This document shows positions 4,349-25,985 of a DNA stretch of 26,907 nt, piece by piece (positions within the stretch are counted from its first letter, which is position 1; the number at the start of each line of letters is the position of its first letter). The notes under the pieces were generated by a model. The model ran no database searches and had not been told where the DNA came from. It saw only the letters and a program-made list of their open reading frames with translations. The translations under genes were made by a program, and so were the position numbers. Origin of the DNA: Candidatus Latescibacterota bacterium (lineage in GTDB: Bacteria > Latescibacterota > UBA2968 > UBA8231); assembly GCA_016187725.1 (NCBI GenBank), contig JACPJE010000266.1:1-26907 (forward strand). Reading direction: 5' to 3'.

Positions 4349-4951
4349 TTACCTGCTGACCACCACCGATCCATCCGCTGCCAGTTCCGTCACCTTGACC
4401 AGGGTGCCGGTGGGAAGCTCCGGGCCTTCGGTCGCTGCCGGCAGCTCCCGCTGGACGCCTTGAACCGTCAGGATCACCTTGCCCAAACCACTCCGGCGCG
4501 CCGGGATCTTGAGGTAGACCTTCGCCTCCATGCCGACCAGGCTCTGGTCGACTGCCGCGGCCCCGCCCGAGGCCAGTTTTGAAACGCCGTAGAGCATGAA
4601 GGCCACCAGGAACATCAGCGCCGTGCCGGCGACCAGGGAGACCAGCGCGGTGACCAGGATGCCCGTTTGAAACTGGTGGATCATGGCGATGCCGGTCCAC
4701 CCGAACATCATCAGGAAATTGATCAGGTTGCGGATGGTGAACACCGGGAAGTAGGCGTGCTCGCCGGCAACCCCGTCGTGGTGCTGGGCCTCATCGACGC
4801 CTGTGTGGTCGAAGGTCAGGCCCACCAGGGTCAGGATGGTTTGGGCGGCAAACACCAGGGTGGCGGGAACGGCTAGGTACCAGAGCAACTGCTCGAAACC
4901 TGACACGGGCGCCGTCCTTTCGCTTGTGAATCGCGCTGGGAAATGCTCCAT
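4349..4951 (-). CDS. NfeD-like membrane protein (YuaF/YqiJ type, flotillin-associated), ~200 aa
   Basis: Three hydrophobic helices (LLWYLAVPATLVFAAQTILTLVGL, NLINFLMMFGWTGIAMI, GILVTALVSLVAGTALMFLVAF) plus a C-terminal OB-like beta region (KVYLKIPARRSGLGKVILTV...TLVKVTEL). It sits immediately upstream of flotillin in the NfeD-flotillin order. ATG start at 4949-4951; an alternative GTG start at 4993. Confidence 0.6.
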   Translation of the reverse strand: MEHFPARFTSERTAPVSGFEQLLWYLAVPATLVFAAQTILTLVGLTFDHTGVDEAQHHDGVAGEHAYFPVFTIRNLINFLMMFGWTGIAMIHQFQTGILVTALVSLVAGTALMFLVAFMLYGVSKLASGGAAAVDQSLVGMEAKVYLKIPARRSGLGKVILTVQGVQRELPAATEGPELPTGTLVKVTELAADGSVVVSR

Positions 4952-5017
4952 TTGCCGCCAAATATCGTCACCCCCCTCCCCAACTTCAAGCACACCCTGG
5001 GCTCTGCCTCCCCTAGC

Positions 5018-7297: not shown

Positions 7298-7383
7298 AAT
7301 CCTTCGGCTTGCGGCGCTGAGATCCGTTGGGGCCCCCAATATAGGCCAATTCAGGCCAGGCAGGTATGGCCGCGCGAAGGGCT

Positions 7384-7418
7384 CCTCACATGAACCAGCG
7401 CTGCTCCTGGTGCACCGC
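7384..7418. repeat. 35-bp direct repeat, right copy
   Basis: 34/35 identical to 2832-2866, same orientation, 4552 bp away. It encodes the last 10 codons plus the stop of the APH-like gene on the minus strand. Confidence 0.85.
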
Positions 7419-8114
7419 CCAGTCCAGGTCGAAGATACCCACCACCTCTCCCTGCCCGGAGAAGAGCAGGTTGGCCGGGGTGTAGTCCCCGTGGATCACC
7501 CACCCCCCCAGGGGAGCATAGCCGGCCCCCGCGTAGTGGCGCTCCTGTGCGTCCACCCGGGTGAGAAAGCGGTCCACCAGGGCCTCTCCCTCAAGATTGG
7601 TCGCCAGGCTCCTGACCGCTATCAGATTCTCGCGCTGCAACTGGGGATCGTCCAGGCGCCCGCTCACCGCGGAGGAGAAACCCAGGGTGGTGTATTGCGC
7701 GATGGGCTCGGTCGGCCCGGCGGGCCGGTACTGCGCTGCGGCCTGGTGGAAGTGGGCCAGGGCCTGGGCGGCGCTGACCAGTTCGCCGCGCTGCTGCGGG
7801 TCGAAGGGCCGGCCAATGACAAAGGGGTAGAGTTCGTACACCCCCTCGGGCCGGCGCAACCAGACCTGACCGGCGGTGGTTTTCAGGGCAGCCACCGTGG
7901 GGATGCCCCGGGCGACCAGGTGGGCGCGCAGTCCGTGGTCAAAGGCCAGGCGCGCCTCGCCCGAGGTGCGGGCGCCCCGGCGGCGCAGGAAGTACTCGCC
8001 CCGGCTGGTGGTGACCTTCCAGGTGCGGCCCGCGGTGCCACCGGCCGGCACCAACTGCAATATCTGGCCCACTTCGTAGGCGGCCAGCACCTGGCTGGTC
8101 TGGGGGTCTGTCAT
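7386..8114 (-). CDS. aminoglycoside/homoserine-kinase-II-type phosphotransferase (APH/ChoK family), 3'-truncated; possible pseudogene
   Basis: ATG 8112-8114. It has a kinase-like N-lobe, the Brenner motif VIHGDYTPANLLF and the DFG-equivalent IFDLDWA. The ORF stops 12 residues later (AVHQEQRWFM*) inside the 35-bp repeat, so about 90-100 residues of the C-lobe are missing. Confidence 0.6.
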   Translation of the reverse strand: MTDPQTSQVLAAYEVGQILQLVPAGGTAGRTWKVTTSRGEYFLRRRGARTSGEARLAFDHGLRAHLVARGIPTVAALKTTAGQVWLRRPEGVYELYPFVIGRPFDPQQRGELVSAAQALAHFHQAAAQYRPAGPTEPIAQYTTLGFSSAVSGRLDDPQLQRENLIAVRSLATNLEGEALVDRFLTRVDAQERHYAGAGYAPLGGWVIHGDYTPANLLFSGQGEVVGIFDLDWAVHQEQRWFM

Positions 8115-8308
8115 CCTCTCACCTCTATGGTGGTTCTGGGTTGTCGTCGTGGAGTGGCCCCTCCAACCTTTCCCCAGGCGCGTCCTTCACCCTCGCGCGC
8201 TCTGGCTCCGCTACTCCGCCCCCCGCCCCGCGGACTTCCCTGCCCGGCCTCTCCCCGGGAAAGGTGTTCCAGGGCCACTCCCCGCCGCCTGCAAGAAGCG
8301 ACGAGGTT

Positions 8309-9463
8309 TCAGCGCTCCACCTTCACCCCCCAGGGTCCCTCGACGTAGGGGAAGCGTTGCTCCACATCCTCTGCCAGTTCGACGCCCAGGCCAGGGGCGG
8401 CGGGCAGCTCCAGGTGTCCGTCCTTGATGAGAGGCGGGTTGCGCAGCATCTCCCACTGCAGCGGTCCCTGGAACATGTTCAGCTCCAGCACCCGCGGGAA
8501 AGGCAGGGCTGCCACCAGGTGGGCGTTGGCCATGGTCATCAGCCCGTTGTGCCAGTTGTGCGGGCACATGGGCACGCCGAACTCCCAGGCGCGGCGAGCG
8601 ATGCGCATGCCTTCGGTCAGCCCGCACCAGCCGCCGTCGGCCTGGACGATGGCGTAGGCCTTCTTGGCCAGGTACGGCTCGAACTGCCCGACCGTGGTGT
8701 ACTGCTCCCCGCCGGTGATCGGCAGCTTCACCGCGGCGTTGAGGCGGGCGTAGCCATCGACGTCGGTCTGGGGGATGGGCTCCTCGAACCAGGTCCAGCC
8801 CATCTCGTCGAGGGCCCGGGCGATCTCCAGGGCCTGGGCCTCGCCGAAGCGCTGGTTGCCGTCCAGCATCAGCTCCATCCGCCCGCCCACCGCCTCGGTC
8901 ACCTGGCGCAGCAGGGCGATAAAGCGGGGCACGGTGACCCCGGCCCACTCCCAGTGGGTGCCGATGCGCATCTTGAAGGCGGTGTACCCGGCGGCGGCGT
9001 ACCGGGTGGCTTCGTCGACCACGGACTCGGGCCGGCACTCCCAGTCGTAGTTGACCCCGCCCGAGGCGTAGAGCCGCACCCGCCGGAGGGGCTGCTGCCC
9101 GGGGGCGGCCAGCAGTTCGGCCACTGGGCGATTGGCGATGCGGCCACGCAGGTCCCACAGGGCAGCGTCGAGGCCGGCCACTGCCGTGTCCACCGGCGCG
9201 TTGAGACCCACCGGGCGCGGGGCTAGGTCCGGTTCGCGCGGATCGCGGCCCAGCAGGTTCTGCTTCAACCGCTCCACCTCGGTGCGGATGCGGGGTGGGT
9301 CGCCGTACGCGCAGGCTTCGCCGATGCCCCGCACTCCTCCATCGGTGTCGATGACCACCACCGCGGCGTCGGCCTTGGGCACCAGAAAGGTGGCAGTGCG
9401 CCACTGGCGTTCGGGCTCGTGGGGGCGGGACAGGCACAGGGTGCGGATGCCGGTGATCTTCAT
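8309..9463 (-). CDS. enolase-superfamily protein (mandelate racemase/muconate lactonizing enzyme family, sugar-acid dehydratase-like), 384 aa
   Basis: MKITGIRT... N-terminus typical of the galactonate/rhamnonate dehydratase subgroup. Metal-ligand pattern LMLDGNQRF / FEEPIP / VQADGGWCG. ATG 9461-9463 with GGAG 9 nt upstream. Stop TGA 8309-8311. Confidence 0.8.
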   Translation of the reverse strand: MKITGIRTLCLSRPHEPERQWRTATFLVPKADAAVVVIDTDGGVRGIGEACAYGDPPRIRTEVERLKQNLLGRDPREPDLAPRPVGLNAPVDTAVAGLDAALWDLRGRIANRPVAELLAAPGQQPLRRVRLYASGGVNYDWECRPESVVDEATRYAAAGYTAFKMRIGTHWEWAGVTVPRFIALLRQVTEAVGGRMELMLDGNQRFGEAQALEIARALDEMGWTWFEEPIPQTDVDGYARLNAAVKLPITGGEQYTTVGQFEPYLAKKAYAIVQADGGWCGLTEGMRIARRAWEFGVPMCPHNWHNGLMTMANAHLVAALPFPRVLELNMFQGPLQWEMLRNPPLIKDGHLELPAAPGLGVELAEDVEQRFPYVEGPWGVKVER

Positions 9464-9581
9464 GGTCTGACTCCGGTGAAATTGGCTCGGTGCAGGTTAC
9501 TGGCTGGGGGTTCCCTGTTTGGGCAATGTACAGGGTACACTAAACAAGCGCTGAGGGGGGCGCCATCCACAGGAGGGAGCG

Positions 9582-10322
9582 ATGAGACAGTGGGCAGCCT
9601 TGCACGAGGACGTGGTTTTCGGCAGGAGCGGGGGCCGGATCATCTGGCAGCCGCGCATCCTGTGCTGGTACACCGACAAGCAGTTCGTCGGCGAGCCGCT
9701 GCCGGCCCCGTACACCGGCCTGCCCATGCCCGAGATCTACCGCAAGCTGGGTTGCTCGGACCGGCTCTACAACTGGTACAACCCCTGTTTCCGCCGCGTC
9801 GAAGACCCAGGCGTGCAGGTGCAACAGGAGCCACTCAACGAGACCGACACCAGGATCACCATCCACACCCCGGCGGGGGCCCAGGTGGCGGTGCATCGCC
9901 GCACGCCCAATAGCTGGCACCACATCAGCCTCAAACGCGAGGTGGAGAGCGAGGCGGAGTTGAAGGTGGCCGCCTGGCGCGAGGAACGCGCCACCTGGGA
10001 ATGGGATCAACAGGCCTTTGACCGGGCCCAGCGCGAGGTGGGGGATCTGGGGGCGCCGGCCATCTTCATGCCGCGCATGAACGTGCAGAGCCTGTACATC
10101 GAGAAGATGGGGGTGGAGGGCGGGGTCTTCGCCATGCACGACTGGCCCGATACCACCGCGGTTTTCTTCGCTGCCCTGGAGGCCTGCCACGACCGGCTCA
10201 TCGAACTCTTCGCCCCCAAGCTGGTGCTGGGCATCTCGGACGAGATTTCTTCCACGGGGGATATTGAGCGGGTGCGGCTTGTGGGGGATATTGTGGAGGA
10301 GTACAATGCGCGGTGCAAATAG
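9582..10322 (+). CDS. hypothetical protein, 246 aa
   Basis: ATG 9582 with AGGAGG 5 nt upstream. GC3-biased with a diverse composition (W/Y/F/H-rich). I could not assign a family. Divergent from the enolase-family gene. Confidence 0.5.
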   Translation: MRQWAALHEDVVFGRSGGRIIWQPRILCWYTDKQFVGEPLPAPYTGLPMPEIYRKLGCSDRLYNWYNPCFRRVEDPGVQVQQEPLNETDTRITIHTPAGAQVAVHRRTPNSWHHISLKREVESEAELKVAAWREERATWEWDQQAFDRAQREVGDLGAPAIFMPRMNVQSLYIEKMGVEGGVFAMHDWPDTTAVFFAALEACHDRLIELFAPKLVLGISDEISSTGDIERVRLVGDIVEEYNARCK

Positions 10323-10333
10323 AGGAGCGTTGC

Positions 10334-10788
10334 ATGAGTGGTGAATGGACGCAGTGGCGGGGCGACAAGCAGCGCAGGGGCCGGGCTGGGGTGGTTGGGC
10401 GGATGGCGCGGCCCCGGATCGACTGGAAGCATTTTGTGGGCTGTCGCGAGGACTGGATCGCCATCAGGCCAGGGAGTGGGGGACGGTTCGAACTGCCCGT
10501 CGGGGAGGTGGAGGCGGATCTGGAGGCCGTGTCGCGCCAGTACGGGCTGGCCCGCTACCTCGATGTGGACGGCTCGGGCAACGCGGTCAAGGTGGCCGAG
10601 TCATCGGGGTGCCGGTTCCACCCCCTGCTGCCGGACACACCCGGGTGGTGGTGGCGGACGTGGACGGGGATGGCTTCGCCGAGATCCTGGCGCCCTGCAG
10701 CGATGGGTACCTGTACTGTGTGAAGCCGGGCGCAGAACAAGACCACCTAGCCGAGAATTCCAGAGAGGCTGCGGAAAATTTATACTAG
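10334..10788 (+). pseudogene. small FG-GAP/PQQ-like beta-propeller-repeat protein, apparently frameshifted near 10615-10640
   Basis: ATG 10334 with AGAGGAG 6 nt upstream. Frame A gives MSGEWTQWRGDKQRRG...YLDVDGSGNAVKVAES... and stops at 10723. Frame B continues ...HTRVVVADVDGDGFAEILAPCSDGYLYCVKPGAEQ... to 10788. Both frames carry the DxDGDG repeat signature. The switch lies around a C5 run (ttccaccccctgctgcc). Confidence 0.4.
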
Positions 10789-10842
10789 GGAGGCCGGGGG
10801 GATTTATATTATTGCAGGATGCTCTGCAGAGAGGAGCAGGCG

Positions 10843-12858
10843 ATGGTCGTGCCATCTGCGCATACTACCTGGCGAGCACGGGGTCTCATGGCCGCCCTGT
10901 GGCTGTCGCTGGCCACTGCCGCCCAGGCCCAGATCTCCTTCTGGCAACTGGGCGGCGGTGGCCTGTCTTGGGCAGAGAGCGACACGACGCGGGTGATGGT
11001 GGCCGTCGACGAGCAGGCCAACACCATCCAGCCGGTCTATTTCTCCGAGGGCGACAACATGATGTTGGCCGTGTCGGGTTGGTCAGAACTGAAGATCCCC
11101 CGCGAGCTTGGCTACATCGACGGCCACCAGCCGCGCCTGTGGCTCCAGGACGGCACCAGCGCCTACTTCACCTCCTACTATGATAGCCCCCTGTACGTGG
11201 ATGGCGACCGCAGCACCTACAACACCGCGCGCCTGGGCTGGTGGACCATAGACCTGGGCGTGCCGGTGCCGGCCAGGCGCTTCGGTTTTCTCACCCCTAC
11301 CGAGGGCTTCCGCTCGGACGGGGTGCCCTTGAACCAAGATCCGGTGCCGGCCTTCGAGGTGTCTGTTTCCGAGGAGAGCGATCCAGCCCTGGAGCTGAGG
11401 GACTACCACCGCCTCAACACCCTGATCGCCGATGTGCAGGAAAACTTCGCCGAGGAGGTGGAGATCGAATTTCCCCCCCAGTACGTGCGCTTCATCCGCT
11501 ATAACCGCAACGCCTCGGTGCTGGACGAGCAGACCATCAGCAATACGGTCCGCGGCACCATCGCCGAATTCGTGCTCCACGGCCAGGGCGTACCCAAGCG
11601 GGCCATCTACTTGACCCAGATCATCGACCTGGGAGCGGAGGTGAACTTCGGCCGCATCTTCTGGGCGGTCAGCACCTGGCGCATGGTAGCCGGGGCGCCC
11701 GTGGAGACGCCAGGGGCCCGGGCCTGGGTGGAGGTCGAGGCGCGCAGCGGCCGGGACAGCGATCCCAATGTGTACCACGAGTACACGGACTCGGGCAAGG
11801 AACTGTTTGTATCGCGCCAGCGCTATGAGCACGAATTGCGCCAGCCCGAGACCGAGGGGGTGCTTCAGCTCGACCGGCGCCCTGGAATACAGGCCTCGAT
11901 CGCCTATGATCTGGAGAACTGGAGTTTCTGGTCCATCCCCCTCACCCAGTCGGGTAGCCTCCTCGAGCTGCGCAATGGCGCGTACCTGCAATTGCAGATC
12001 ACCCTGCAGAGCCGGGCCTTCGGCGATTTCGTGCGCCTGGACTCTGTGTGGATTGAGCAGTCGCCGCCCCTGGCCGACCAGGTGCTAGGCGAGGTGGCCC
12101 TGCTGGACGAGCCTCGGCCAGCGCTCGGCTTCACCCAGGTCGAGCTGGGCCGGCGCGCGGCTTTTGCCTATGACCTCAGAGCCATCTTCGCCTCGGCGGC
12201 CCAGGGCGGCTTTGACGCGGTGCGCCTGCGCGCCGGCAGCCGGCCGCGCTTTTTGCGCCTGGAGATGGGTGAACCCCTGGTCCGGGTAGAGCCGGCCGGA
12301 GTCGCCGAAGAGGAGGAGGGGCTGGTCGTCCTGCTGCCGGAGAAAGTGACCGGCCAGCGCAATGTGCCCGCGCGCGTGGTCTTTGACACCGAGGTGTTTC
12401 TGCACGCCACGACCTTCGAAGGCGAGGTCTCCGATTCAAAAGTGGAAAGCCTGCCCCAGCCAATCGAACCCGGGGATGCGGGCGACTATATTTCTACCGG
12501 CAGCCTGCGCGTGCTGGGCGGCCGCGGCCGGACGCCCGGTTTCATCGAGGATTTAGAGCTCTCCGGCGCTGTGGTGACACCCAACGGCGATGGGATCAAC
12601 GACCGGCTGACCATCCGCTACAATCTGTTCCTGTTGCCCGAACCCATTCCGGTGGAGTTGAATGTGCACGACCTGCAGGGCCGGCGCCGTCTGCACCTCG
12701 AGGTGGGCGCGCAGGAGGCCGGGCCCCAAGAGGTGTTCTGGGACGGCCGGGACAACGAGGGGAGGCTGCTGGAACCGGGCATCTACCTGGTGGACATTCG
12801 CCTGCGCTCCGAGCTGAAAGACCTCCGCCAGGTGCGCCCGGTGGGTCTGGCCTACTAG
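10843..12858 (+). CDS. secreted discoidin (F5/8 type C)-domain protein with a C-terminal T9SS-type-B-like (CHU_C) sorting domain, 671 aa
   Basis: ATG 10843 with GAGGAG 6 nt upstream. Signal peptide MVVPSAHTTWRARGLMAALWLSLATAAQA/Q. Discoidin-like signatures (VDGDRSTYNTARLGWWTIDLG...; PQYVRFIRYNR). C-terminus SGAVVTPNGDGINDRLTIRYNL...LHLEVGAQEAGPQEVFWDGRDNEGRLLEPGIYLVDIRL matches the FTPNGDGxNDxF gliding-motility / T9SS type B C-terminal-domain motif. Confidence 0.75.
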   Translation: MVVPSAHTTWRARGLMAALWLSLATAAQAQISFWQLGGGGLSWAESDTTRVMVAVDEQANTIQPVYFSEGDNMMLAVSGWSELKIPRELGYIDGHQPRLWLQDGTSAYFTSYYDSPLYVDGDRSTYNTARLGWWTIDLGVPVPARRFGFLTPTEGFRSDGVPLNQDPVPAFEVSVSEESDPALELRDYHRLNTLIADVQENFAEEVEIEFPPQYVRFIRYNRNASVLDEQTISNTVRGTIAEFVLHGQGVPKRAIYLTQIIDLGAEVNFGRIFWAVSTWRMVAGAPVETPGARAWVEVEARSGRDSDPNVYHEYTDSGKELFVSRQRYEHELRQPETEGVLQLDRRPGIQASIAYDLENWSFWSIPLTQSGSLLELRNGAYLQLQITLQSRAFGDFVRLDSVWIEQSPPLADQVLGEVALLDEPRPALGFTQVELGRRAAFAYDLRAIFASAAQGGFDAVRLRAGSRPRFLRLEMGEPLVRVEPAGVAEEEEGLVVLLPEKVTGQRNVPARVVFDTEVFLHATTFEGEVSDSKVESLPQPIEPGDAGDYISTGSLRVLGGRGRTPGFIEDLELSGAVVTPNGDGINDRLTIRYNLFLLPEPIPVELNVHDLQGRRRLHLEVGAQEAGPQEVFWDGRDNEGRLLEPGIYLVDIRLRSELKDLRQVRPVGLAY

Positions 12859-12868
12859 AGGTGTGCTC

Positions 12869-15226
12869 ATGATCTCCTCGGTCAGATGGCTGCGCTGGGC
12901 CTTTGGGCTGGGCTCCCTGATTCTGGAGGCAGGGTCAGGCCGGGCCGAGGTGTTCACCATCGACAGCGCCCCGGAGTGGCAGACCTGGCAGTTTCCCCAG
13001 GGCCTGGTGCAGATCAGCCAGGCCGGGCACCTGGAGCTGACCCGGTTCCGCAGGGGGATAGATCCGGTCCGCGACGCGGAGCAGTTCACCCACCCCACGG
13101 TAACCCGCGGCCAGGTGTCCGGGGGGATCTGGCGGGCGGCCTCCAATCCGCAGGCGGCCGCCCGGATTATCGATGGAGACCGGCGGACCTCCTGGAAGCC
13201 CGAGGCGGCCGACCCCCTGGCTGCCTGGGAGGTCGAGATCGACCTGGGCCGCGCGGTGCTGGTCCGCCAGCTCCGCCTGATCTTTCCCGACGAAGAGGGG
13301 GCGCACCCCTTCAGGCAGTTCAGCGTGTACGTGGCCACCGGGGCCACGATCACCATCGCGGACGACCTCTTCTCTTTCGACACGGTCTATCAGACGACCC
13401 TGCCCAACACTGAGCGGGAGATCGCCATCGACCTGTCCGGGCGCAAGGACACTACCAGGGTGCTGGATCCGGGCCTGGACCCGGAAGACGAGTCCGGCTT
13501 TCGCGTCGTCCAGTACATCCGCTTTGGCGCCGATGCCAAAAGCGAGGATGCGGCGCTGGCCGAAATCGAGGTGGTGGCCGTGGGCGACAATATAGGCCTG
13601 GGCGCCCTGGAAAGGGGTGGCACCTTCAGCGCCGGGCTGGTGACGCGTGATCCGCAGTTCATGATCGACGGCAACATGAACACCCACGCCAACAAGTTCA
13701 CGGTATTCCGCGTCAGCGGCGACTGGAAGGCAGATGGCCTGTGGTGGGAACTGGACCTGGGCGCCCTGTTCTGGCTCGACGAAGTCTTCCTCTACTTCAA
13801 TGACCCCGGCGAAGGGGCCTCGGGATCGACGACGCGCAATGCCGGCACGGGCTTTGCCTTCCGCTTCTCCGAAGGGAGGCGCACTACCTCGGGCGAGGTG
13901 GACTACACCCCGCTGGTCGCCGAAGGAGACGAGCAAGCCCCCTTCTACATCGAAGACCGGCACTTTCGCTACCTCTTCGCCCCGCGCCAGGTCCGCTACC
14001 TGTTGTGGTACGGCTTTGTGACCCCGCAGGAATGGCACGCGCGCGTCCCGGAACTCATGCTCTTCTCTCCGGGATACCCGGCCCAGGTGGTGCTGCGCTC
14101 CGGCTTCATCGACCTGGGGCGGATCGCAGGGGACAACCGGCCCAAGGCTATCAGGAGCCTTTCCTGGGAAGTGGAACTGCCGCCCAGGACGCGCATGCAG
14201 TTGCGCTCGCGCTCGGGCAGCTCGTTCAAGGAGGAGTACACCTTTCACGACAAGAAGGGGGAGATCGTCACCGAGGCCAGGTGGAACAGCCTGCCCAAGG
14301 CCGTCAAGGGGCCGGTGGACACGGTGCTGGTGGCAGGTGGCGACTGGAGTCCCTGGAGCAATTTCTACCAGCTCTCAGGCGAAGCGTTCCAGTCGGAGAA
14401 CCCCAGGCGCTTCCTCCAGCTGGAGGCCATCCTGTCCACCGATGATCCTGAGGTGGCGCCGGTGCTGCGCTCGCTCGCCATCGAATACGAGGACGCGCTG
14501 GTGCGCCAGGCCCGTGGCCGCCTAGAGCCGCGCCAGGCCAGGCCCAATGAAGCGACGCGCTTTACCTATACCTTGTGGCCCAGCGTCGGGGAAGACGACA
14601 GCGGCTTCGACGCCCTGCGCCTGGTGGCGCCGGAAGGGCTGATAGACGCAGGGAGGATCGAGGTGCGGAGCGGCGAGGAGAGGATCGCCCCGGCAGAGGT
14701 GAGCGTGAGTCAGGACTCGCTGTGGGTGTTCCTGCCCCAGCAGCACAGAGCAGACTCGCTGGAGTTGAGTTTCACCGCCCGCCTGCTGCGCAATGCCACG
14801 GTCTTCGCCCTGGACCTGGGCAATGCGGCTCGCCCGGGGCTGTGGCAGTCGGTGGAAGCGGTCGAGCGGGGGGCCAATGTGGTTTTCCTGCCCGAACTGA
14901 CGGGCAGCCAGAGACTGATCCGCGACCTGGAGATCATCCCGCCGGCCTTCACTCCCAACGGCGATGGGATCAACGACCAGCTGGAGATCCGCTTCGCGGT
15001 GCTCAAGGTGGAGAAGGCCCGGCCCCGGGTGCGCATTTTCGATCTGGCCGGCCGGCCCGTGGCAGAACTGACAGAGGCAGGGGGTGGCCTCGCCAAGGTC
15101 TACAGATGGTCGGGGATTGCTGCGGATGGCCATAGGGTGGCGCCGGGGGTGTACCTGTGCCATATAGACCTGGGCGCTGAGGTGGGGAAGGAGGCAGTGG
15201 CGCGCTCCATCGCGGTGGTGTACTGA
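12869..15226 (+). CDS. secreted protein with two discoidin-like domains and a C-terminal T9SS-type-B-like (CHU_C) sorting domain, 785 aa
   Basis: ATG 12869 with AGGTG 5 nt upstream, 10 nt after the previous stop. Signal peptide MISSVRWLRWAFGLGSLILEAGSGRA/EV. Discoidin signatures IDGDRRTSWKP...WEVEIDLG...VVQYIRF and MIDGNMNTHANKF...WWELDLG...QVRYLLW. C-terminus FTPNGDGINDQLEIRFAV...VRIFDLAGRPV...YRWSGIAADGHRVAPGVYLCHIDLG. Paralogous C-terminal domain with the previous gene. Confidence 0.75.
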   Translation: MISSVRWLRWAFGLGSLILEAGSGRAEVFTIDSAPEWQTWQFPQGLVQISQAGHLELTRFRRGIDPVRDAEQFTHPTVTRGQVSGGIWRAASNPQAAARIIDGDRRTSWKPEAADPLAAWEVEIDLGRAVLVRQLRLIFPDEEGAHPFRQFSVYVATGATITIADDLFSFDTVYQTTLPNTEREIAIDLSGRKDTTRVLDPGLDPEDESGFRVVQYIRFGADAKSEDAALAEIEVVAVGDNIGLGALERGGTFSAGLVTRDPQFMIDGNMNTHANKFTVFRVSGDWKADGLWWELDLGALFWLDEVFLYFNDPGEGASGSTTRNAGTGFAFRFSEGRRTTSGEVDYTPLVAEGDEQAPFYIEDRHFRYLFAPRQVRYLLWYGFVTPQEWHARVPELMLFSPGYPAQVVLRSGFIDLGRIAGDNRPKAIRSLSWEVELPPRTRMQLRSRSGSSFKEEYTFHDKKGEIVTEARWNSLPKAVKGPVDTVLVAGGDWSPWSNFYQLSGEAFQSENPRRFLQLEAILSTDDPEVAPVLRSLAIEYEDALVRQARGRLEPRQARPNEATRFTYTLWPSVGEDDSGFDALRLVAPEGLIDAGRIEVRSGEERIAPAEVSVSQDSLWVFLPQQHRADSLELSFTARLLRNATVFALDLGNAARPGLWQSVEAVERGANVVFLPELTGSQRLIRDLEIIPPAFTPNGDGINDQLEIRFAVLKVEKARPRVRIFDLAGRPVAELTEAGGGLAKVYRWSGIAADGHRVAPGVYLCHIDLGAEVGKEAVARSIAVVY

Positions 15227-18200
15227 ATGCAACGCTCTCCTTGTGCGGTGCTCCTGGCGCTGATGCTAGCCGGCGCCACAGGGGCACAACAACTGGAGAT
15301 TCCCAATCCCTCTTTTGAGGAGGGGCAGGGGCAGCCGGCGGGCTGGACCCTGGCGGGGAACGGCGAGTGGGCGCAGGGCGGGGCCGAGGGCGAACGGGCC
15401 CTGCTGGTGAGCGGCGATGGGGAGAGCACCAGTTTCTGGCGCTCGGCGCTGCTGTCCCTGAAGCCGGGCGGCCTTTACCTGCTGCGCTTCAGGGCCCGCG
15501 GTCTGGAAGGGGGCGGCGGCACGCCCACCAGCGGGCCGGTCTTCTGCAACCGCGATCTGGGCGATCTGGGCAGTGAGTGGGGGGAGCAGACCTCGGTGTT
15601 CAAGGTGCCCGATTCCCTGGAGGCGGAGCGGGCCTGGCTGCGCTTCGGCCAGTGGCACCTCAAGGGGGCGGTGGCCTTCGACGCGGTGGAGCTGGCCGAG
15701 GCCCAGCCCGTCTACACCCGCAGGGGAGATCTGATGTTGGGCGAGGGCGAGGAAATCGACAGCCGGCGCTACACCTTCGCGGCTCCTTTTCACAGCTCCT
15801 CGCGCAACCACAGCCGGCCCCTGGCCGCCCAGCGCTGCGACTTCAACACCAACCGCTGGGTCTTCGGGGCCGGCAGCTACGCGATCTACCGCCACGAGCT
15901 GGCTGGCCGTCTTCAGCGCGACGCCCAGGTGGCGGTGACCATCGGGTATTACCAGGCCGGGGAACTGGTGGTGGAGGCCAGCGCCGAGGGCGGGCAATGG
16001 CGGGAGTTGGGCACCCTGGGCGAGGCGGGCAGCCGCAGCTTCGCCCTGCCCGGCGAGCTGCTGCCGGCACCAGTGATTTGGGTCCGGCTGCGCGCCCAGG
16101 CCAGGCAGGCGCTGGGCGCCAATTCGGACCCGGGCTCCTTCCAGATCCACAACTATACTTACCGTTCGGTCGTGGAGGGCGAGCCGCTGCGCGTGCAGGG
16201 GCACACCCAGTTTGTGGTGATCCAGGGCATTGATCCCCGGTTGCAGGTGCAGGTCGCAGGTCTGGGCGAGCAGGTGCCCGGCGGCGACAACCGCATCGCC
16301 GTGCAGATCGAAAACACCAGCGGGGGCACCCTTTCCCTGGTGCAGGGGGTGCAGGTGAAGGGGGAAGGAGTTGTGGCACAGATGGACACTGCGACCATCG
16401 CGCTGCCGCCTGGACCCAGCTCCCGGTCTCTTCCCTATGCTCTTCCCGGGTCTGGCAGCTTCTGGGTGGAGTACTCCCTGGGCGAGTTCCGCGCCGGGAC
16501 CTGGGTGTACCTGCCGCTGCTCTACGCCACAACCTACGGGGAGCAGTTGCCCGGGTCGAGGGCAGATGTGGGTCTGTGGTGGGCTTCCTCCGGGTGGAAG
16601 GTGAGCCGGCAGCGGCCCCTGCCCCAGGCCAAAGGCCAGACCCTGCGCATCCGCGCTGCCCGCGACGAACGCGAGGCTGCCCAGCTGGTGGTGCGGCCCG
16701 ACCGCAAGCTGCGCGGCCTGTGGGCAAGGCCTCAGGACCTGAGCGGGCCGGAGGAGGCCCGCATCGGGGCCGGGCAGATCGAGATCCTGCGCGTGGGGTA
16801 TGTGCCGGTGGCCCAGCCCTCGGATTACAGCGGCGCAGCGGCGCTCTGGCCTGATCCCCTGCCCCCGCTGAGCGAGCCCATCGACATTCCCGCCGGCACT
16901 GACCAGCCCCTGTGGGTGCGGGTCCACGTACCGCCCGGGACGCCGGCCGGGCTGTACACCGGCGCCATCGCCCTGGAGGCTGAAGGGTTCAGCGCCCTGG
17001 TGCCCCTGCAGGTGGAGGTCTACGATTTTGCGCTGCCACGGCGCATGAGCTGCACCACGGCCTTTGGCTTCTCGCCCGAGGAGGTCTTCCGCTATCAAGC
17101 GCTCTCCGACCCGCAGCAGCAGCGGGCGGTGCTGGACCAGTATCTGGAGAATTTCAGCGCCCACCGGGTCTCGCCCTACGACCCGGCCCCCCTCGATCAC
17201 TTCGAGGTGAAATGGTCGCCGAACCTGGAGCCCAGCTTCTCGTGGCAGGCCTGGGATCAGGCCATGAGCCGGGCCATCGACACCCTGGGTTTCAACTCCT
17301 TCCGCCTGCCGGTGCAGGGCCTGGGCAGCGGCACGTACCACGACCGTACCGAACCGAGCCTGCAGGGCTTTGGGGAAAACACCCCCCAGTACCAGCAGGG
17401 CCTGCGCGCGTACCTGGGCGAACTGGAGCGCCACCTGGAGGAAAAGGGCTGGCTGGACGAGGCGTACGTGTACTGGTTCGACGAGCCCGACCCCAAGGAC
17501 TATGCCTTCGTGATGAAGGGTTTCGGCAAGCTCAAGGAATACGCCCCCCGCATCCGGCGCATGCTCACCGAACAGGTGGAGCCCGAATTAGTGGGCGGGC
17601 CCGACATCTGGTGCCTGCTCACCCCGGAGTGCGATTCCACCGCCATGACCGGGCGCCAGCAGGCCGGCGACGCCTTCTGGTGGTACGTATGCACGGTGCC
17701 CAAGGCGCCCTATGCCGGGCTCTTCATCGACCACCCGGCGACGGAAATGCGGGTCTGGCTGTGGCAGACCTGGCAGCGCAACCTGCAGGGGGTGCTGGTC
17801 TGGCAGACCAATTACTGGACCAGCGAGGCGGCGTACCCGGAGCACCCGCAGAATCCCTACGCCGATCCGATGAGCTGGGTGAGCGGGTACAGCACCGAGC
17901 GGGGTAACAAGCTGCCCTGGGGCAACGGGGACGGCCGCTTTCTGTATCCCCCCGAGGCGGCGGCCAGCGGCCAGGCGCATGAACCGGTGCTGACTGGGCC
18001 GGTGGACAGTATGCGTTGGGAAATGCTGCGCGACGGGATCGAGGACTACGAGTATTTCGCCATCCTCAAGAAGCTGTTGGCCGAGCAGGGGGCGGCCCTG
18101 GAGGCGGAGGAGCGCCGCACTTACGAGGCCCTCCTGCAGGTGCCCGAGGTGGTGAGCGCGGAGCTGACCCGCTTCACCGGCGACCCGGCACCCCTCGAAG

Positions 18201-18247
18201 CGCACCGCCACGAATTGGCCAGGGCCATCGAGGCGCTGGGCCGGTAA
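15227..18247 (+). CDS. secreted glycoside-hydrolase-like protein with an N-terminal CBM4/9-like module and DUF4091-like (GH123-like?) C-terminal region, 1006 aa
   Basis: ATG 15227 directly abuts the upstream TGA (TGAATG). Signal peptide MQRSPCAVLLALMLAGATGAQQ. NPSFEEGQGQPAGWTLAGNG is a CBM4/9-type opening. GLYTGAIALEAEGFSALVPLQVEVYDFALP, then WGNGDGRFLYPP and MRWEMLRDGIEDYEYFAIL, are hallmarks I associate with DUF4091-containing glycosidases. Confidence 0.6.
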   Translation: MQRSPCAVLLALMLAGATGAQQLEIPNPSFEEGQGQPAGWTLAGNGEWAQGGAEGERALLVSGDGESTSFWRSALLSLKPGGLYLLRFRARGLEGGGGTPTSGPVFCNRDLGDLGSEWGEQTSVFKVPDSLEAERAWLRFGQWHLKGAVAFDAVELAEAQPVYTRRGDLMLGEGEEIDSRRYTFAAPFHSSSRNHSRPLAAQRCDFNTNRWVFGAGSYAIYRHELAGRLQRDAQVAVTIGYYQAGELVVEASAEGGQWRELGTLGEAGSRSFALPGELLPAPVIWVRLRAQARQALGANSDPGSFQIHNYTYRSVVEGEPLRVQGHTQFVVIQGIDPRLQVQVAGLGEQVPGGDNRIAVQIENTSGGTLSLVQGVQVKGEGVVAQMDTATIALPPGPSSRSLPYALPGSGSFWVEYSLGEFRAGTWVYLPLLYATTYGEQLPGSRADVGLWWASSGWKVSRQRPLPQAKGQTLRIRAARDEREAAQLVVRPDRKLRGLWARPQDLSGPEEARIGAGQIEILRVGYVPVAQPSDYSGAAALWPDPLPPLSEPIDIPAGTDQPLWVRVHVPPGTPAGLYTGAIALEAEGFSALVPLQVEVYDFALPRRMSCTTAFGFSPEEVFRYQALSDPQQQRAVLDQYLENFSAHRVSPYDPAPLDHFEVKWSPNLEPSFSWQAWDQAMSRAIDTLGFNSFRLPVQGLGSGTYHDRTEPSLQGFGENTPQYQQGLRAYLGELERHLEEKGWLDEAYVYWFDEPDPKDYAFVMKGFGKLKEYAPRIRRMLTEQVEPELVGGPDIWCLLTPECDSTAMTGRQQAGDAFWWYVCTVPKAPYAGLFIDHPATEMRVWLWQTWQRNLQGVLVWQTNYWTSEAAYPEHPQNPYADPMSWVSGYSTERGNKLPWGNGDGRFLYPPEAAASGQAHEPVLTGPVDSMRWEMLRDGIEDYEYFAILKKLLAEQGAALEAEERRTYEALLQVPEVVSAELTRFTGDPAPLEAHRHELARAIEALGR

Positions 18248-18260
18248 TGAGGAGGAAAAC

Positions 18261-18305
18261 ATGGGCATCCGCGTCAGGGATTGCTCACAACATGAGGTGA
18301 GATGA
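18261..18305 (+). CDS. 14-codon upstream ORF (MGIRVRDCSQHEVR) translationally coupled to the GH36-like gene
   Basis: Strong SD GGAGG at 18251-18255, 5 nt before ATG 18261. Its TGA (18303-18305) overlaps the downstream ATG (18302-18304) as ATGA. The downstream gene has no properly spaced SD of its own. Confidence 0.3.
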   Translation: MGIRVRDCSQHEVR

Positions 18306-20296
18306 TGGACACTGCCATCGTACCTAGCACCAAACCCGAGGACATGGCGCAGAGCCGGGCCTGGACAGGGGGCTTCTTCGCCAGCGCCACCGACCTCCCC
18401 ATCTCGTTTGTACTCGACGGGAAAGCCCTAAAGGGCATTCCCGTCGCATGGCATCCGGCGGTGGAGCGCCGCCGCATCGACGCCAATATCTGCGAGACGG
18501 TTTTCGCGGGCGCTGATCCCAGGACGGGCCTGAAGGTCCGGGTCGAATGCACGGAATACCAGGACTACCCGGTCGTCGAATGGGTGGCCTGGTTTGCCAA
18601 CCAGGGAGCGGAGGACACGCCGGTGATCCGCGACATCCTCGCCATGGACGGCGTGTTCGCGGGGCCTTCGCCGGTGCTGCACCATTGCAACGGTGACTTC
18701 TACAGCGAGGAAGGATACACGCCCAGCCAGACGCCTCTGCGCGCCGGAGACCAGGCCGACTTTGCGCCAAACGGGGGCCGCCCCTGCGATGGGGCGTTCC
18801 CCTATTACCGTATCGAGTTTGAAGGCTGCGGCCTGAGCATGGCCGTCGGCTGGCCCGCGCAGTGGGCGGCCAGGTTCGGCGGGCTGGCAGAGGGGGTGCA
18901 GGTCCGGGTGGGTCAGGAAAGGACCGCACTGCGGCTCAGGCCGGGCGAGCGCATCCGCACCCCGCGCGTGACGGTCCTGTCCTGGACCGGGGAGGTCGGC
19001 AGGGCAGTGAACCTGTGGCGGCGGTGGTACCTCGCCCATATCCTTCCCAGGCCCAAGGGGCAGCCGCTGCGCCCGCTGCTGGCCTGCTGCTGCCCTGACG
19101 AAGGCGAGGAATTCACCGCTGCGACCGAGGAGAACCAGCTCCGCTATATCGAGCGTTTCAAGCAGCAGGGCATCCCCTTTGACCTCTGGTGGATCGACGC
19201 CGGATGGTATCCCTGCTACAACAAAGACCGCGAGCGGAAGTGGTGGATCACCGGCACCTGGGAACCTGACCCCGAGCGCTTTCCCCGCGGTCTGAAACCG
19301 GTAGCCGACCGTGCCGCCAGGGAGGGGGCCGACCTGCTGGTCTGGTTCGAGCCCGAAAGGATACAGCCGGGCACCAGGCTCGACGTGGAACGTCCGGAGT
19401 GGCTGCTGAGGGCGAAGGGGAGCGACAACGGCCTGCTGAACCTGGGCGACCCTGAGTGCCGGCGCTGGCTCACGGATCACCTGTGCCGGCTGATCGAGGA
19501 CAACGGCATCAGGATCTACCGGCAGGACCACAACTTCCCGCCCCTGGAACACTGGCGCCAGAACGAGGCCGGAGACCGCCAGGGGATGAACGAGAACCTC
19601 CACGTCCAGGGCTACCTGCAGTTCTGGGACGATTTGCTGGCGCGCAACCCCGGCTTGTGGATCGATTCGTGCTCCAGCGGCGGGCGCCGCAACGACCTGG
19701 AGACCATGCGCCGCTCGGTGCCGCTGCACTACACCGACTACGGGTACGGGGACCATCCGGTAAAGCTGGCCTTCCACCGCACGCTGTACGAGTGGATACC
19801 CTATTTCAAGGAGGCCACCCTCTCCTGGGACCTGGGCGGGAGGGATAAGTTCGACCATCAGGTGGACAGTTACTCCTATCACTGCGCCCTGGCGCCCATG
19901 CTCTTTGCGACGCTGGACATCCGCCGGGACGATTACGACTTTGCCCTGGTCAGGAAGATGATCGGGGTCTGGCGCCGGGCCTCAGACCTGATCTTGCACG
20001 GCGACTACTACCCTCACACGCCCTTCCACCACCGCGCGCAGGCGTGGGTCGCCTGGCAGTTCGACTGCCCGGAACGAGGATGCGGGTTGCTCCAGGGGAT
20101 CCGCCTGCCCGAAGCTCCGGAAGAGGAGATCACCATCCAGCCACAAGGGATGCACCCGGACGCCAGCTATCGCTTCGAGCACGCGGAAACGGGGGAGACC
20201 AGAACGGTCTCGGGCGCAGGGCTGATCCAGGGCGGCTTCACCTTCGCGCTGCCCATACGCAGCGCCGCCCTCTGGTTCTATAAGGAGGTCCGCTGA
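18302..20296 (+). CDS. glycoside hydrolase family 36-like (melibiase/alpha-galactosidase or alpha-GalNAc-ase family) protein, 664 aa
   Basis: GIRIYRQDHN resembles the GH36 KWDMN nucleophile region. DSCSSGGRRNDLETM resembles the GH36 CxGGGR(F/L)D acid/base region. An N-terminal beta-sandwich plus central TIM-barrel layout is implied by the length. Stop TGA 20294-20296. Confidence 0.65.
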   Translation: MMDTAIVPSTKPEDMAQSRAWTGGFFASATDLPISFVLDGKALKGIPVAWHPAVERRRIDANICETVFAGADPRTGLKVRVECTEYQDYPVVEWVAWFANQGAEDTPVIRDILAMDGVFAGPSPVLHHCNGDFYSEEGYTPSQTPLRAGDQADFAPNGGRPCDGAFPYYRIEFEGCGLSMAVGWPAQWAARFGGLAEGVQVRVGQERTALRLRPGERIRTPRVTVLSWTGEVGRAVNLWRRWYLAHILPRPKGQPLRPLLACCCPDEGEEFTAATEENQLRYIERFKQQGIPFDLWWIDAGWYPCYNKDRERKWWITGTWEPDPERFPRGLKPVADRAAREGADLLVWFEPERIQPGTRLDVERPEWLLRAKGSDNGLLNLGDPECRRWLTDHLCRLIEDNGIRIYRQDHNFPPLEHWRQNEAGDRQGMNENLHVQGYLQFWDDLLARNPGLWIDSCSSGGRRNDLETMRRSVPLHYTDYGYGDHPVKLAFHRTLYEWIPYFKEATLSWDLGGRDKFDHQVDSYSYHCALAPMLFATLDIRRDDYDFALVRKMIGVWRRASDLILHGDYYPHTPFHHRAQAWVAWQFDCPERGCGLLQGIRLPEAPEEEITIQPQGMHPDASYRFEHAETGETRTVSGAGLIQGGFTFALPIRSAALWFYKEVR

Positions 20297-20315
20297 CTCC
20301 AGGCCAAGGAGTGTT

Positions 20316-21146
20316 ATGAAATTTCAGGTCTACCAGTCCCTGTGGGGCATGGTGGGGCTCCCTTTCGGCGGAGCAAAGGAATGGACCCTGGAGGAGAAGG
20401 TGGCCAAGATCGCCGAGGCCGGCTTCGACGGGGTGGAGTTCCTCATGGAGGACCCGGCGCACCTCAAGGCCATGCTGCCCCTGGTCGAGAAACACCAGCT
20501 CCGGCGCAGCAATATCGTCTTCCCCTGGACCCCTGAGGAGTTCAAGGCCGACATCCAGGCGGCCCGCGACGGGGGAGCTACCCACATCAACCTGCAGCCC
20601 ATGCCCATGCCGCGCAGTGTGGCAGCCGGGGTGCCCTATCTGGTGCGCTGCATGGACCTGGCCGCAGCGGCGGGTTTTCCGCTCTATATCGAGACCCACC
20701 GCGACCGCATGACCACTGACATGTACTTCACCCTGGACCTGATCGAGGCGGTGCCCGATCTGGTGCTCTGCGGCGATCTGTCGCACTTTCTGGTGGGGCG
20801 GGAGTTCGCCGGCCCGCCGCTCTCCGCTGACAATGACCGCTACATGAAGCAGATCCTGGAACGCTGCGGCGCCTTCCACGGCCGGGTGGCTTCGCGCGAG
20901 CAGGTGCAGGTGCCCATCTCCTTCCCCCATAACAAGGTCTGGCTGGACCTGTACACCAGCTGGTGGGAGTACGGGTTCAGGAAGTTCAAGGAGCGGGCTA
21001 AACCGGAGGATACCCTCACCTTTGTGGTGGAGCTGGGGCCGCCCACCTATGCCCTGCAGGGGGCCGACGGCAAGGAATTGTCCGACCGCTGGCAGGAAGC
21101 GCAGCAGCTCAAGGACCTGGTGTGGGCGATCTGGAAGCGGGTTTGA
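20316..21146 (+). CDS. sugar phosphate isomerase/epimerase (xylose-isomerase-like TIM barrel) family protein, 276 aa
   Basis: ATG 20316 with AAGGAG 4 nt upstream. Family-like segments include GFDGVEFLMED, PLYIETHRDRMTTD and LCGDLSHFLVG. Last gene of the plus-strand operon. Confidence 0.75.
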   Translation: MKFQVYQSLWGMVGLPFGGAKEWTLEEKVAKIAEAGFDGVEFLMEDPAHLKAMLPLVEKHQLRRSNIVFPWTPEEFKADIQAARDGGATHINLQPMPMPRSVAAGVPYLVRCMDLAAAAGFPLYIETHRDRMTTDMYFTLDLIEAVPDLVLCGDLSHFLVGREFAGPPLSADNDRYMKQILERCGAFHGRVASREQVQVPISFPHNKVWLDLYTSWWEYGFRKFKERAKPEDTLTFVVELGPPTYALQGADGKELSDRWQEAQQLKDLVWAIWKRV

Positions 21147-21169
21147 ATTAGAGCGGGCGCTAAAAGAAC

Positions 21170-21211
21170 AGAGCCGCTTCCCCAGCAGGGAGGCAGCTCT
21201 GGTTGTTTGTA
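21170..21211 (+). terminator. putative rho-independent terminator after the isomerase gene
   Basis: CAGAGC-C-GCUUCCC-CAGCA-GGGAGGC-A-GCUCUG forms a stem of about 13 bp (one mismatch, one G-U) followed by GUUGUUUGU. Read by eye; the energy was not computed. Confidence 0.45.
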
Positions 21212-24653: not shown

Positions 24654-25985
24654 TCACTCCCGCCAGATCCCGGCGAGCCATCCCATCAGCCCGGCGAAGA
24701 AAGCGCGGTAGTACTGGCCCCAGCCGTCCCACACCACGTTGCCGCGGTGGGCGCCCCAGGCCGGCCGGCTGGCCAGCACAGCGACGCGGCCCTGGCCGTA
24801 TTCGGCCAGGCCCAGCGCCGGATGTCTGCCGGCATCGGTGAAGCGCAGAGGGACGAGGGCATCGGGCCAGGCCCTGGCTGGCGCCCACCAGGTGAGGCGC
24901 ACCTGGGCGTCGGGTTCGAGCATCAGGCGCGAGACGGTGAAATGGGGGGTGCCCAACTGCAGGCCCAGCGCCGGCTCAGTGCGCTGGAGTTTGCCGGCCG
25001 GCTGCAGGGGCAGCATATCTCCCAGGGTGGAGGCCAGTTCGCCAAAAGGGGCGCAGAGCAGCAGCCCGCCACCAGCCGCGATCCAGTCCCACAGTTCACC
25101 GACCTTTTCCAGGGGCCAGGCATCGCCCACCAGGCAGAGGGCAGCGCAGCCCTCAAGATCCTGCGGGCCGCGCTGGCCCGGGCCCTGCCAGTCCACGGCA
25201 AACCCGGTCTGGAGGCCGCTGGCATGCAGGTACTCGCCGTCGGATTCGGGGTTTTCGCCCTCGTGGTGGCTGGCCACCAGGACACGCGCCCCCCCGCCGG
25301 CAAAGGGCAAATGGGCGGTGGGGCGCTGTCCCTGCAGGGCCACCAGTTCCCGGGTGTGGAGCAGGGCGCGGCCCGCTTCCTGGTAGGTGATTTCTGCGGT
25401 GGCGAAATCGCCGGTGGCCGGCAGGGGCAGTTCGAGGGCCAGGGGTTTCCCGGGGGTCGGGGTGCCGGTTTTTTCACCGTGGCCCTGCACGGCGCCAGCC
25501 TGGTCGAGGACATGTACCGTCAAGGTTCCGGAACCGCGCTCTGCCAGGTGTACGCCCACCGCGATGGTGCGCTGATCCCGACGGGTGAGGGTGAGGCCGC
25601 CTTCCTGGCCGGCGCGGACGAAATCCTTCCCTCCCGTACCCAGGGTGACGTCGAAGCCCCAGACCGCGCGGTCTCCGGGCGGCACCTCGATATGGCTGAT
25701 GCCCTGGGGGGTATAGGCCCCGTACCCGGCAAAGTGCAGGCCCCAGTACGGCTCGAAGCGGGCCTTGAGCAGGAAGAACTCCTCCCCGTCGCCCGGGCCG
25801 GTGGCGTACCACCAGGGCGCGCCCTCCAGGTCCCAGCGCAGGCGGTCGAAGACCCGCTCTTCCAGGCGGGGGGCGGGGAAGAGCGGCGCAGCCTCCTTGA
25901 GGACCGTGCGCAGGTAAGGGTTCTCGACCACGACCTCGCGGTCGCCGTCGGCGTCCACGTCGGCAAAACGCACTTCGATGGCCAT
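24654..25985 (-). CDS. hypothetical protein, 443 aa (C-terminal half possibly class-I glutamine-amidotransferase-like/ThuA-like fold)
   Basis: ATG 25983-25985 with no clear SD. Strong GC3 bias and diverse composition. RVLVASHHEGENPESDGEYLHASG...LCLVGDAWP...LWDWIAAGGGLLL suggests a GATase1-like domain. Its stop is 3 bp from the convergent stop of the previous gene. Confidence 0.5.
   Translation of the reverse strand: MAIEVRFADVDADGDREVVVENPYLRTVLKEAAPLFPAPRLEERVFDRLRWDLEGAPWWYATGPGDGEEFFLLKARFEPYWGLHFAGYGAYTPQGISHIEVPPGDRAVWGFDVTLGTGGKDFVRAGQEGGLTLTRRDQRTIAVGVHLAERGSGTLTVHVLDQAGAVQGHGEKTGTPTPGKPLALELPLPATGDFATAEITYQEAGRALLHTRELVALQGQRPTAHLPFAGGGARVLVASHHEGENPESDGEYLHASGLQTGFAVDWQGPGQRGPQDLEGCAALCLVGDAWPLEKVGELWDWIAAGGGLLLCAPFGELASTLGDMLPLQPAGKLQRTEPALGLQLGTPHFTVSRLMLEPDAQVRLTWWAPARAWPDALVPLRFTDAGRHPALGLAEYGQGRVAVLASRPAWGAHRGNVVWDGWGQYYRAFFAGLMGWLAGIWRE

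Follow-up and report, generated by a model that had tools for sequence, protein, structure and literature searches.

The window analysed here, 26,907 nucleotides of contig JACPJE010000266.1 (assembly GCA_016187725.1) from a Candidatus Latescibacterota metagenome-assembled genome (MAG), contains five consecutive genes on one strand, G1 to G5, encoding two predicted surface proteins (G1 and G2), two predicted glycosidases (G3 and G4) and a sugar isomerase-like protein (G5). The five-gene arrangement is a recent patchwork and not a conserved sugar-foraging operon, because close relatives are without it. On balance, the region is probably a mosaic of recent origin that occupies a variable slot in a Latescibacterota chromosome and is made up of a surface-protein pair (G1-G2) and the enzymes downstream of it. 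The features that bear on this are:

10843-12858 (+), G1, 671 to 679 amino acids: predicted surface protein with signal peptide, CBM32/discoidin-like and beta-sandwich/immunoglobulin (Ig)-like domains and a C-terminal sorting-type domain
10819 (679 amino acids) and 10888 (+), alternative starts of G1, the latter implied by a 656-amino-acid NCBI protein
12556-12855 (+), C-terminal beta-sandwich domain of G1, about 100 amino acids, with TPNGDGIND from residue 587
12863-15226 (+), G2, 785 to 787 amino acids (787 in the open reading frame): full-length paralogue of G1 that has a second discoidin-like domain in addition
12869 (+), alternative start of G2, implied by a 785-amino-acid NCBI protein
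14918-15223 (+), C-terminal domain of G2, with TPNGDGIND from residue 697
15227-18247 (+), G3, whole gene, 1006 amino acids
15227-16576 (+), signal peptide and N-terminal extension of G3 (about 430 amino acids), fold unassigned, conserved among homologues of full length but missing from a short form
16577-18247 (+), GH123-family catalytic region of G3: N-terminal beta-sandwich, (beta/alpha)8 barrel, DUF4091 and DE motif (D752-E753)
18302-20296 (+), G4, 664 amino acids: GH36-like clan-D glycosidase, no signal peptide
20316-21146 (+), G5, 276 amino acids: xylose-isomerase-like TIM barrel (sugar isomerase/epimerase class), no signal peptide
21169-21201 (+), hairpin (13-bp stem) and then GUUGUUUGU, between G5 and a convergent cyclic nucleotide (cNMP)-binding gene
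10317-15301, segment without counterpart in the related contigs L085 and L084 (blastn of the window against L085): remnant of a 136-amino-acid open reading frame, G1, G2 and the first 75 or so nucleotides of G3 (signal-peptide codons)
18239-20305, G4-bearing segment, replaced in L085 by three minus-strand genes and present in the related contig L164
9582-10322 (+), up1, a URO-D-like gene upstream of the cluster, with an in-frame internal deletion of 124 amino acids relative to its 370-amino-acid L085 orthologue

The window has a G+C content of about 67% throughout. As spurious open reading frames (ORFs) are numerous in G+C-rich DNA, codon-position G+C was used to separate them from real ones, and the five same-strand ORFs carry a strong coding signal (G+C of 0.84 to 0.87 at third and 0.40 to 0.49 at second codon positions). 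G2 has exactly the sequence of a MAG protein at NCBI titled "Candidatus Latescibacter…" and G1 has locus tag HYW07_23355 in a Candidatus Latescibacteria MAG. The order and tight packing of the genes, given in a preliminary description made from the sequence alone, were borne out, with intergenic gaps of 4 (G1/G2), 0 (G2/G3), 54 (G3/G4) and 19 bp (G4/G5) and the stop codon of G2 directly abutting the start of G3. This spacing makes co-transcription likely in the organism from which the window comes. The hairpin reported after the fifth gene is also present; the 69-nt segment that contains it has a minimum free energy of -27.5 kcal/mol (z -2.05), and it is a plausible terminator.

Evidence that the arrangement is recent comes from L085 and L084, metagenome contigs from two samples which were compared with the window by blastn and tblastn. 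The flanks of L085 share 78 to 90% nucleotide identity with the window, and the two have in common the order URO-D-like, FGE, APH, enolase, up1, G3, G5, cNMP-binding and response-regulator genes. G3 and G5 are kept in L085 and L084 (G5 of L085 is 95% identical to that of the window), while G1, G2 and G4 are missing. The gap between up1 and G3 is just 138 bp in L085. Three genes on the opposite strand, encoding a PhyH-like protein, a 403-amino-acid protein and a PrcB_C protein, lie between G3 and G5 of L085 in place of G4, so that G3 and G5 cannot share a transcript there. A further contig, L164, which starts inside G3, has G3 (77% identical) next to G4 (82%) and no G5. In the 77 other, more distant G3 loci of a metagenome scan there was no G1, G2, G4 or G5, and approximately 80 G1/G2 loci, covered for at most 10 kb to either side, contained no homologue of G3, G4 or G5. 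Gene set and order thus differ from those of the window in every one of these comparisons.

The deletion in up1 is located at the junction with the segment missing from L085, which hints that the state seen in the window is the derived one. It falls between two similar '...LIE(V/L)...' motifs. Overlapping the end of up1 is the 136-amino-acid ORF (10313-10723, + strand; third-position G+C 0.80), whose N-terminus reads EWTQWRGDKQRRGR. It has no Pfam match and no homologue in any locus fetched; its N-terminus looks like the beginning of a PQQ/BamB-like beta-propeller protein, and it may be a gene remnant brought in with G1-G2.

An arrangement found only in the window contig among the data searched could also have arisen if the MAG contig were a chimera of assembly or binning. 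Against this, the separately assembled 7-kb Logan contig L001 reproduces the G2-G3-G4 junctions at 100% identity, although it may come from the same sample. In addition, adjacency of G3 and G4 is seen independently in L164, and the reading-frame junction between G2 and G3 is clean. A chimera is very improbable.

The preliminary description had proposed a dedicated, co-evolved five-gene operon resembling a polysaccharide utilization locus (PUL), with secreted products and with C-terminal domains (CTDs) of type B of the T9SS (type IX secretion system) delivering glycan binders for two hydrolases. The short gaps and the hairpin 3' of the last gene agree with such an operon, as do the hydrolase families, the CBM32-like folds of G1 and G2 and the CHU_C match of G2 described below. 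On conservation, the proposal is already contradicted: synteny is lost even at 78 to 90% nucleotide identity, no other G1/G2 locus includes G3 to G5, and no more distant G3 locus includes any of the other four genes. It also requires secreted products. Signal peptides were found in G1 to G3, and the sorting-type CTD is confined to G1 and G2; since G4 and G5 have no signal peptide and G3 has no such domain, the cluster as a whole cannot be called secreted, a term that fits G1 to G3 at most. Furthermore, both G1 and G2 fail the type-B model TIGR04131 and no PorP/SprF gene was found among the window ORFs scanned. A dedicated operon of this kind is therefore improbable. Bacteroidota-type PULs are recognized by adjacent SusC and SusD, and the absence of both, as originally described, was confirmed in that none of the window ORFs scanned matched the Pfam families TonB_dep_Rec, Plug or SusD.

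G1, G2 and G3 all begin with hydrophobic, signal-like segments. The likely signal-peptidase sites, as read from the sequence (10819-10930 and 15227-15300), are AQA↓Q in G1 and GA↓QQ in G3, and the Gln at +1 fits the 'Q-rule' of Bacteroidetes. BLASTP detects similarity between G1 and G2 across the C-terminal 325 residues, and HHalign comparison of the two families (probability 100%, E = 5e-51, 598 columns) shows that they are full-length paralogues, G2 having an inserted extra domain of about 160 residues in the profile-profile alignment. The AlphaFold2 models of G1 (pLDDT 86.5) and G2 (74.4) are all-beta and consist of several domains each. They resemble CBM32/discoidin modules, PorU, PorZ and the T9SS CTD of mirolase, and Foldseek matches of G2 include neuropilin b1b2, factor V and ZmpB CBM32-1/2. 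G1 is predicted to have one CBM32/discoidin-like jelly-roll and G2 two, each protein having in addition two more beta-sandwich domains and a CTD of about 100 residues. Pfam support for F5/8 type C (discoidin)/CBM32 domains comes from G2, in which F5_F8_type_C_2 (PF22633) scores 28.7 against a cut-off of 27.8; PF00754 stays below its cut-off (26.0 against 28.2), so that the match of G2 is marginal, and a Pfam scan of G1 gave no discoidin match. Hence the discoidin domains first proposed for both proteins hold for both in predicted fold, and for G2 only, and narrowly, in Pfam. A profile of the G2 family searched against PDB sequences returned just weak matches to FlgD Ig-like domains, located at the CTD.

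The CTD of G1 and G2 is a compact C-terminal Ig-like beta-sandwich, as in T9SS CTDs. That of G2 passes Pfam CHU_C (PF13585) with 32.8 bits (cut-off 27) and that of G1 passes FlgD_ig with 29.8 bits (cut-off 27), a model that carries the same NGDG motif. Precomputed annotation assigns PF13585 to most members of the G2 family and PF13860 to most members of the G1 family. Neither protein matches the type-A models TIGR04183 and PF18962 at E ≤ 0.01. TIGR04183 (cut-off 23) is, on the other hand, passed by all five CTDs tested among neighbouring proteins in related Latescibacterota genomes (27.9 to 35.6 bits), so that several Latescibacterota genomes encode, near G1/G2 loci, proteins with T9SS-style sorting signals.

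Homologues of G2 number in the hundreds and are of near-constant length (about 780 amino acids); a profile search returned 562 clusters (50% identity) at E ≤ 1e-30, and the full-length homologues listed are 51 to 66% identical to G2. Mean column identity in the G2-family alignment is 66%, and many Trp and Gly residues are invariant in the G1/G2 family. Judged by record titles, the family is for the most part found only in Latescibacterota and in Gemmatimonadota-labelled MAGs. In the 77 related G1/G2 loci taken from GTDB species genomes, almost all of which have such titles, a G1-like gene nearly always adjoins a G2-like gene (G2 is solitary in a few), and tandem arrays of two to four G1-G2 pairs are common. 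Complete Latescibacterota chromosomes with the family (for example, OZ241867.1, OZ253462.1 and OX638377.1) each have at least 5 to 15 members at several loci, and further paralogues are present in the MAG from which the window comes (HYW07_15355, HYW07_21080 and HYW07_01145).

The genes next to these pairs vary. In most loci with the closest pairs (64 to 66% identical) a sulfatase gene comes next (for example, L083); in L002 no same-strand gene follows. Other pairs have as neighbours genes for an Opp-like ABC importer, enolase-superfamily, amidohydrolase, DHDPS-family and arylsulfotransferase-like proteins, a TonB-dependent receptor or a GH4 enzyme. As most of these are uptake or catabolic genes, a role of G1 and G2 in substrate capture is favoured. 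Arrays of two to four G1-G2 pairs are found directly downstream of an MR_MLE enolase-superfamily gene in L015, L018, L022, L023, L026, L029, L032, L034 and L041; the MR_MLE gene of the window (8309-9463) is on the strand opposite to G1-G2. In L030 (positions ~1100-10000), six tandem paralogues of about 480 amino acids, arylsulfotransferase-like (PF14269), separate the G1-like from the G2-like gene.

G3 matches GH123_cat (PF13320, 85.9 bits) and GH123_N_2 (PF22680, 44.5 bits), and its closest PDB match is 8k2j (E = 1.3e-32, over residues 451-1006), with FDEP aligned to ADEP. The GH123 catalytic motif is a consecutive Asp-Glu pair (PMC11087588), which is kept in G3, D752-E753 aligning with the DE of 8k2j. 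The N-domain, DUF4091/GH123_cat and DE motif are therefore all present, and the initial assignment of G3 as a GH123-like/DUF4091 hydrolase was correct. From its molecule name and the grouping in PMC11087588, 8k2j is taken to be NgaDssm, a beta-N-acetylgalactosaminidase, releasing oligosaccharides or monosaccharides, of group 3 of the enlarged GH123 family. G3 has the three features above in common with NgaDssm and differs from it in the additional N-terminal extension of some 430 amino acids. Residues 1-450 have no match to any Pfam family at E ≤ 0.1, CBM_4_9 included, so the CBM4/9 domain at first placed here is unsupported. G3 has a signal peptide, a helical C-terminal end and no sorting domain, and is probably periplasmic. 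A short form of the protein without residues 1-432 is common in metagenomes (L137, L146-L153 and L157-L163). It is approximately 55 to 60% identical to residues 433-1006 of G3, most full-length homologues being 40 to 57% identical in the same region.

Most bacterial GH36 enzymes are cytoplasmic, and from the absence of a signal peptide G4 and G5 are likely to be so too. G4 scores 66.2 bits with Melibiase (PF02065) over profile positions 64-251, which cover about 190 residues, and aligns with GH36 alpha-galactosidases in the PDB (E = 2e-18), motifs included. Its putative nucleophile, D409 (YRQD), and acid/base, D465 (GGRRND), align with KWD and GGGRFD of 6jhp. The Melibiase domain and both catalytic Asp residues uphold the earlier GH36-like call and are as in the alpha-galactosidases AgaA/AgaB and LaMel36A (4fnq, 2xn0, 6jhp). 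G4 differs from these enzymes in that the Pfam model covers just ~190 of its residues, the substrate motif DDGW is altered to DAGW and its scores stay far from those required by any NCBIfam equivalog, the top match being a beta-L-arabinopyranosidase model (57 against a cut-off of 1100). The C-terminal domain PF16874 is under threshold (17.3 against 27). Across records titled Latescibacteria and Chloroflexi the G4 family is 67 to 82% identical; the Chloroflexi-titled records (Caldilineaceae and Anaerolineae; P0247, P0254, P0260 and P0309) are 69 to 72% identical to G4, which suggests either horizontal transfer or unusually strong conservation. G5 was described as a sugar-phosphate isomerase. 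A xylose-isomerase-like TIM barrel is indicated by AP_endonuc_2 (PF01261), though marginally (30.5 bits against a cut-off of 31.1), and there was no NCBIfam match and no PDB sequence match.

Taken together, these data would fit the following scheme for the mosaic. G1 and G2 would be exported by Sec, after which the CTD may take them across or onto the outer membrane via a T9SS-like pathway; on the cell surface they would act jointly in capturing a ligand, probably glycans. The pair appears to have been placed recently in front of G3, a putative periplasmic GH123-family beta-N-acetylgalactosaminidase/hexosaminidase, with G4 (a predicted cytoplasmic GH36-like glycosidase) and G5 (a predicted cytoplasmic TIM-barrel sugar isomerase/epimerase-like protein) downstream. 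Given the spacing of the genes and the functions of their families, co-transcription and joint use of glycans of the N-acetylgalactosamine/galactose type are plausible.

Several observations weigh against this scheme. TIGR04131 (cut-off 35) gives 19.7 bits for G2 and no match for G1 at E ≤ 0.01, G1 is below the CHU_C threshold (19.1 bits) and no PorP/SprF gene (PF11751 match) is present among the window ORFs scanned. In Bacteroidota, cargo of type B requires PorP/SprF-like proteins, which anchor it, and sprB adjoins sprF (PMC9143113). The strong conservation and constant length of G1 and G2 are unusual for substrate-binding proteins, and some paralogues are clustered with a peptidyl-prolyl isomerase (PPIase), tetratricopeptide repeat (TPR) proteins and unannotated envelope proteins, so that a structural role fits as well. 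Finally, a cytoplasmic GH36 and a periplasmic GH123 enzyme need not share a substrate.

From the first three of these results, membership of the CTD in the type-B family is not established; what remains of the type-B assignment in the preliminary description is a domain that is T9SS-CTD-like in fold and motif (TPNGDGIND), with CHU_C passed by G2. Bacteroidota T9SS cargo of type A (TIGR04183/PF18962) and type B (TIGR04131/PF13585; for example, SprB and PG1035) shares with G1 and G2 a Sec signal at the N-terminus and, at the C-terminus, an Ig-like beta-sandwich of about 80 to 100 amino acids. The likeness extends to CHU_C (G2) and FlgD_ig (G1), both above Pfam thresholds, and to the fold of the G1 model, which is like those of PorU, of PorZ and of the CTD of mirolase. 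The Bacteroidota cargo differs from G1 and G2 in that these fail both TIGR04131 and TIGR04183, have no adjacent PorP/SprF-like gene that could be found and belong to Latescibacterota. This phylum is part of the Fibrobacteres-Chlorobi-Bacteroidetes (FCB) superphylum. A CTD of this type in a high-G+C genome, to which the preliminary description had drawn attention, is not anomalous: the contig is from Latescibacterota, and a review names other FCB phyla, Latescibacterota not among them, as possible T9SS carriers (PMC11285876). A literature search for Latescibacteria with T9SS, type IX or PorV found no paper linking them.

The main rival to the scheme is that G1 and G2 are structural or adhesive components of the envelope, part of a surface coat or of an uncharacterized envelope machine, and that their proximity to glycosidase genes is incidental. 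In favour of this are the high conservation, constant length and many invariant Trp and Gly residues of the family, its multiple copies and tandem arrays, and the recent junction with G3. Two divergent types of cluster, each of which recurs once per complete chromosome sampled, also point in this direction. In these, G1/G2 paralogues are accompanied by a polytopic membrane protein (DUF6785/DUF6784), a protein of 883 amino acids that has a signal peptide, a small secreted protein and a lipoprotein, as well as by TPR proteins and a SurA-like PPIase. The DUF6785/DUF6784 protein is specific to one type (type E; L045-L057 and L063), the other (type F) comprising L058-L066, L069, L073, L077 and L081. 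However, CBM32-type folds are usually carbohydrate-binding modules, and the neighbours of G1-G2 pairs are mostly for uptake or catabolism (ABC importer, TonB receptor, sulfatase, GH4, enolase-superfamily and amidohydrolase). A structural or adhesive role is possible but rather unlikely.

The proteins encoded by the type E and F clusters include one of about 880 amino acids with a signal peptide and rich in Asp/Asn repeats, a lipoprotein of about 250 amino acids (LAGC lipobox) and a secreted protein of about 308 amino acids. Beyond the DUF names, they have no match in Pfam, NCBIfam or PDB sequences. Four conserved neighbours, c1 (the ~880-amino-acid protein of type E) to c4, were looked at individually: c1, c2 and c3 match nothing in Pfam or NCBIfam, c4 matches only DUF6785/DUF6784 in Pfam and nothing in NCBIfam, and c1 and c4 have no significant PDB sequence match. 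None of the four has a homologue in the window by tblastn, and a search of the literature for DUF6785/DUF6784 found nothing.

A broader, speculative and rather unlikely proposal is that G1/G2-type pairs form the surface substrate-capture module of a nutrient-acquisition system specific to Latescibacterota and operating without SusC/SusD. Its core version would be the recurrent clusters that join such a pair to the DUF6785/DUF6784 protein of the inner membrane, the ~880-amino-acid signal-peptide protein, which may be an outer-membrane component, the lipoprotein and the small secreted protein; satellite pairs, that of the window among them, would have moved beside different catabolic genes (sulfatase, GH123/GH36, ABC importer and enolase-superfamily), thereby retargeting the system to other substrates. 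If they capture substrates, G1 and G2 would be somewhat like surface glycan-binding proteins of the SusE/SusF type. SusE and SusF are lipoproteins of Bacteroidota PULs that work with SusC/SusD, whereas G1 and G2 have no lipobox, possess a CTD, form a paralogous pair and have no SusC/SusD among the window ORFs scanned.

Outside the cluster, the minus-strand gene at 5018-7339 encodes a 773-amino-acid protein with two FGE-sulfatase domains preceded by N-terminal CarboxypepD_reg and FlgD_ig-like domains. It matches the GldK/PorK model in part and was considered as a homologue of these proteins; this was rejected, as its 166 bits fall well short of the cut-off (350) and EgtB/SenA-type models score higher. 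FGE-domain genes are also located divergently upstream of the type F clusters, the most divergent of the G1/G2 clusters, beside a gene for a MauG-like di-haem peroxidase with a type-A CTD. Two more ORFs of the window, at 60-2060 (- strand, 666 amino acids) and 24654-25985 (- strand, 443 amino acids), have good coding signal and no significant Pfam match; the latter is 85% identical to a gene of L164.

The enzymes G3 to G5 are ordinary members of the GH123, GH36 and TIM-barrel families, and it is the large uncharacterized G1/G2 family, not the hydrolase cluster, that is new. The window is a concrete example of a G1-G2 pair recombined beside new enzymes. Should G1-G2 pairs serve in substrate capture, their presence would flag the loci for nutrient acquisition in this little-known phylum, much as SusC/SusD flags the PULs of Bacteroidota, and T9SS-style surface display would extend beyond the phyla in which it has been studied so far.

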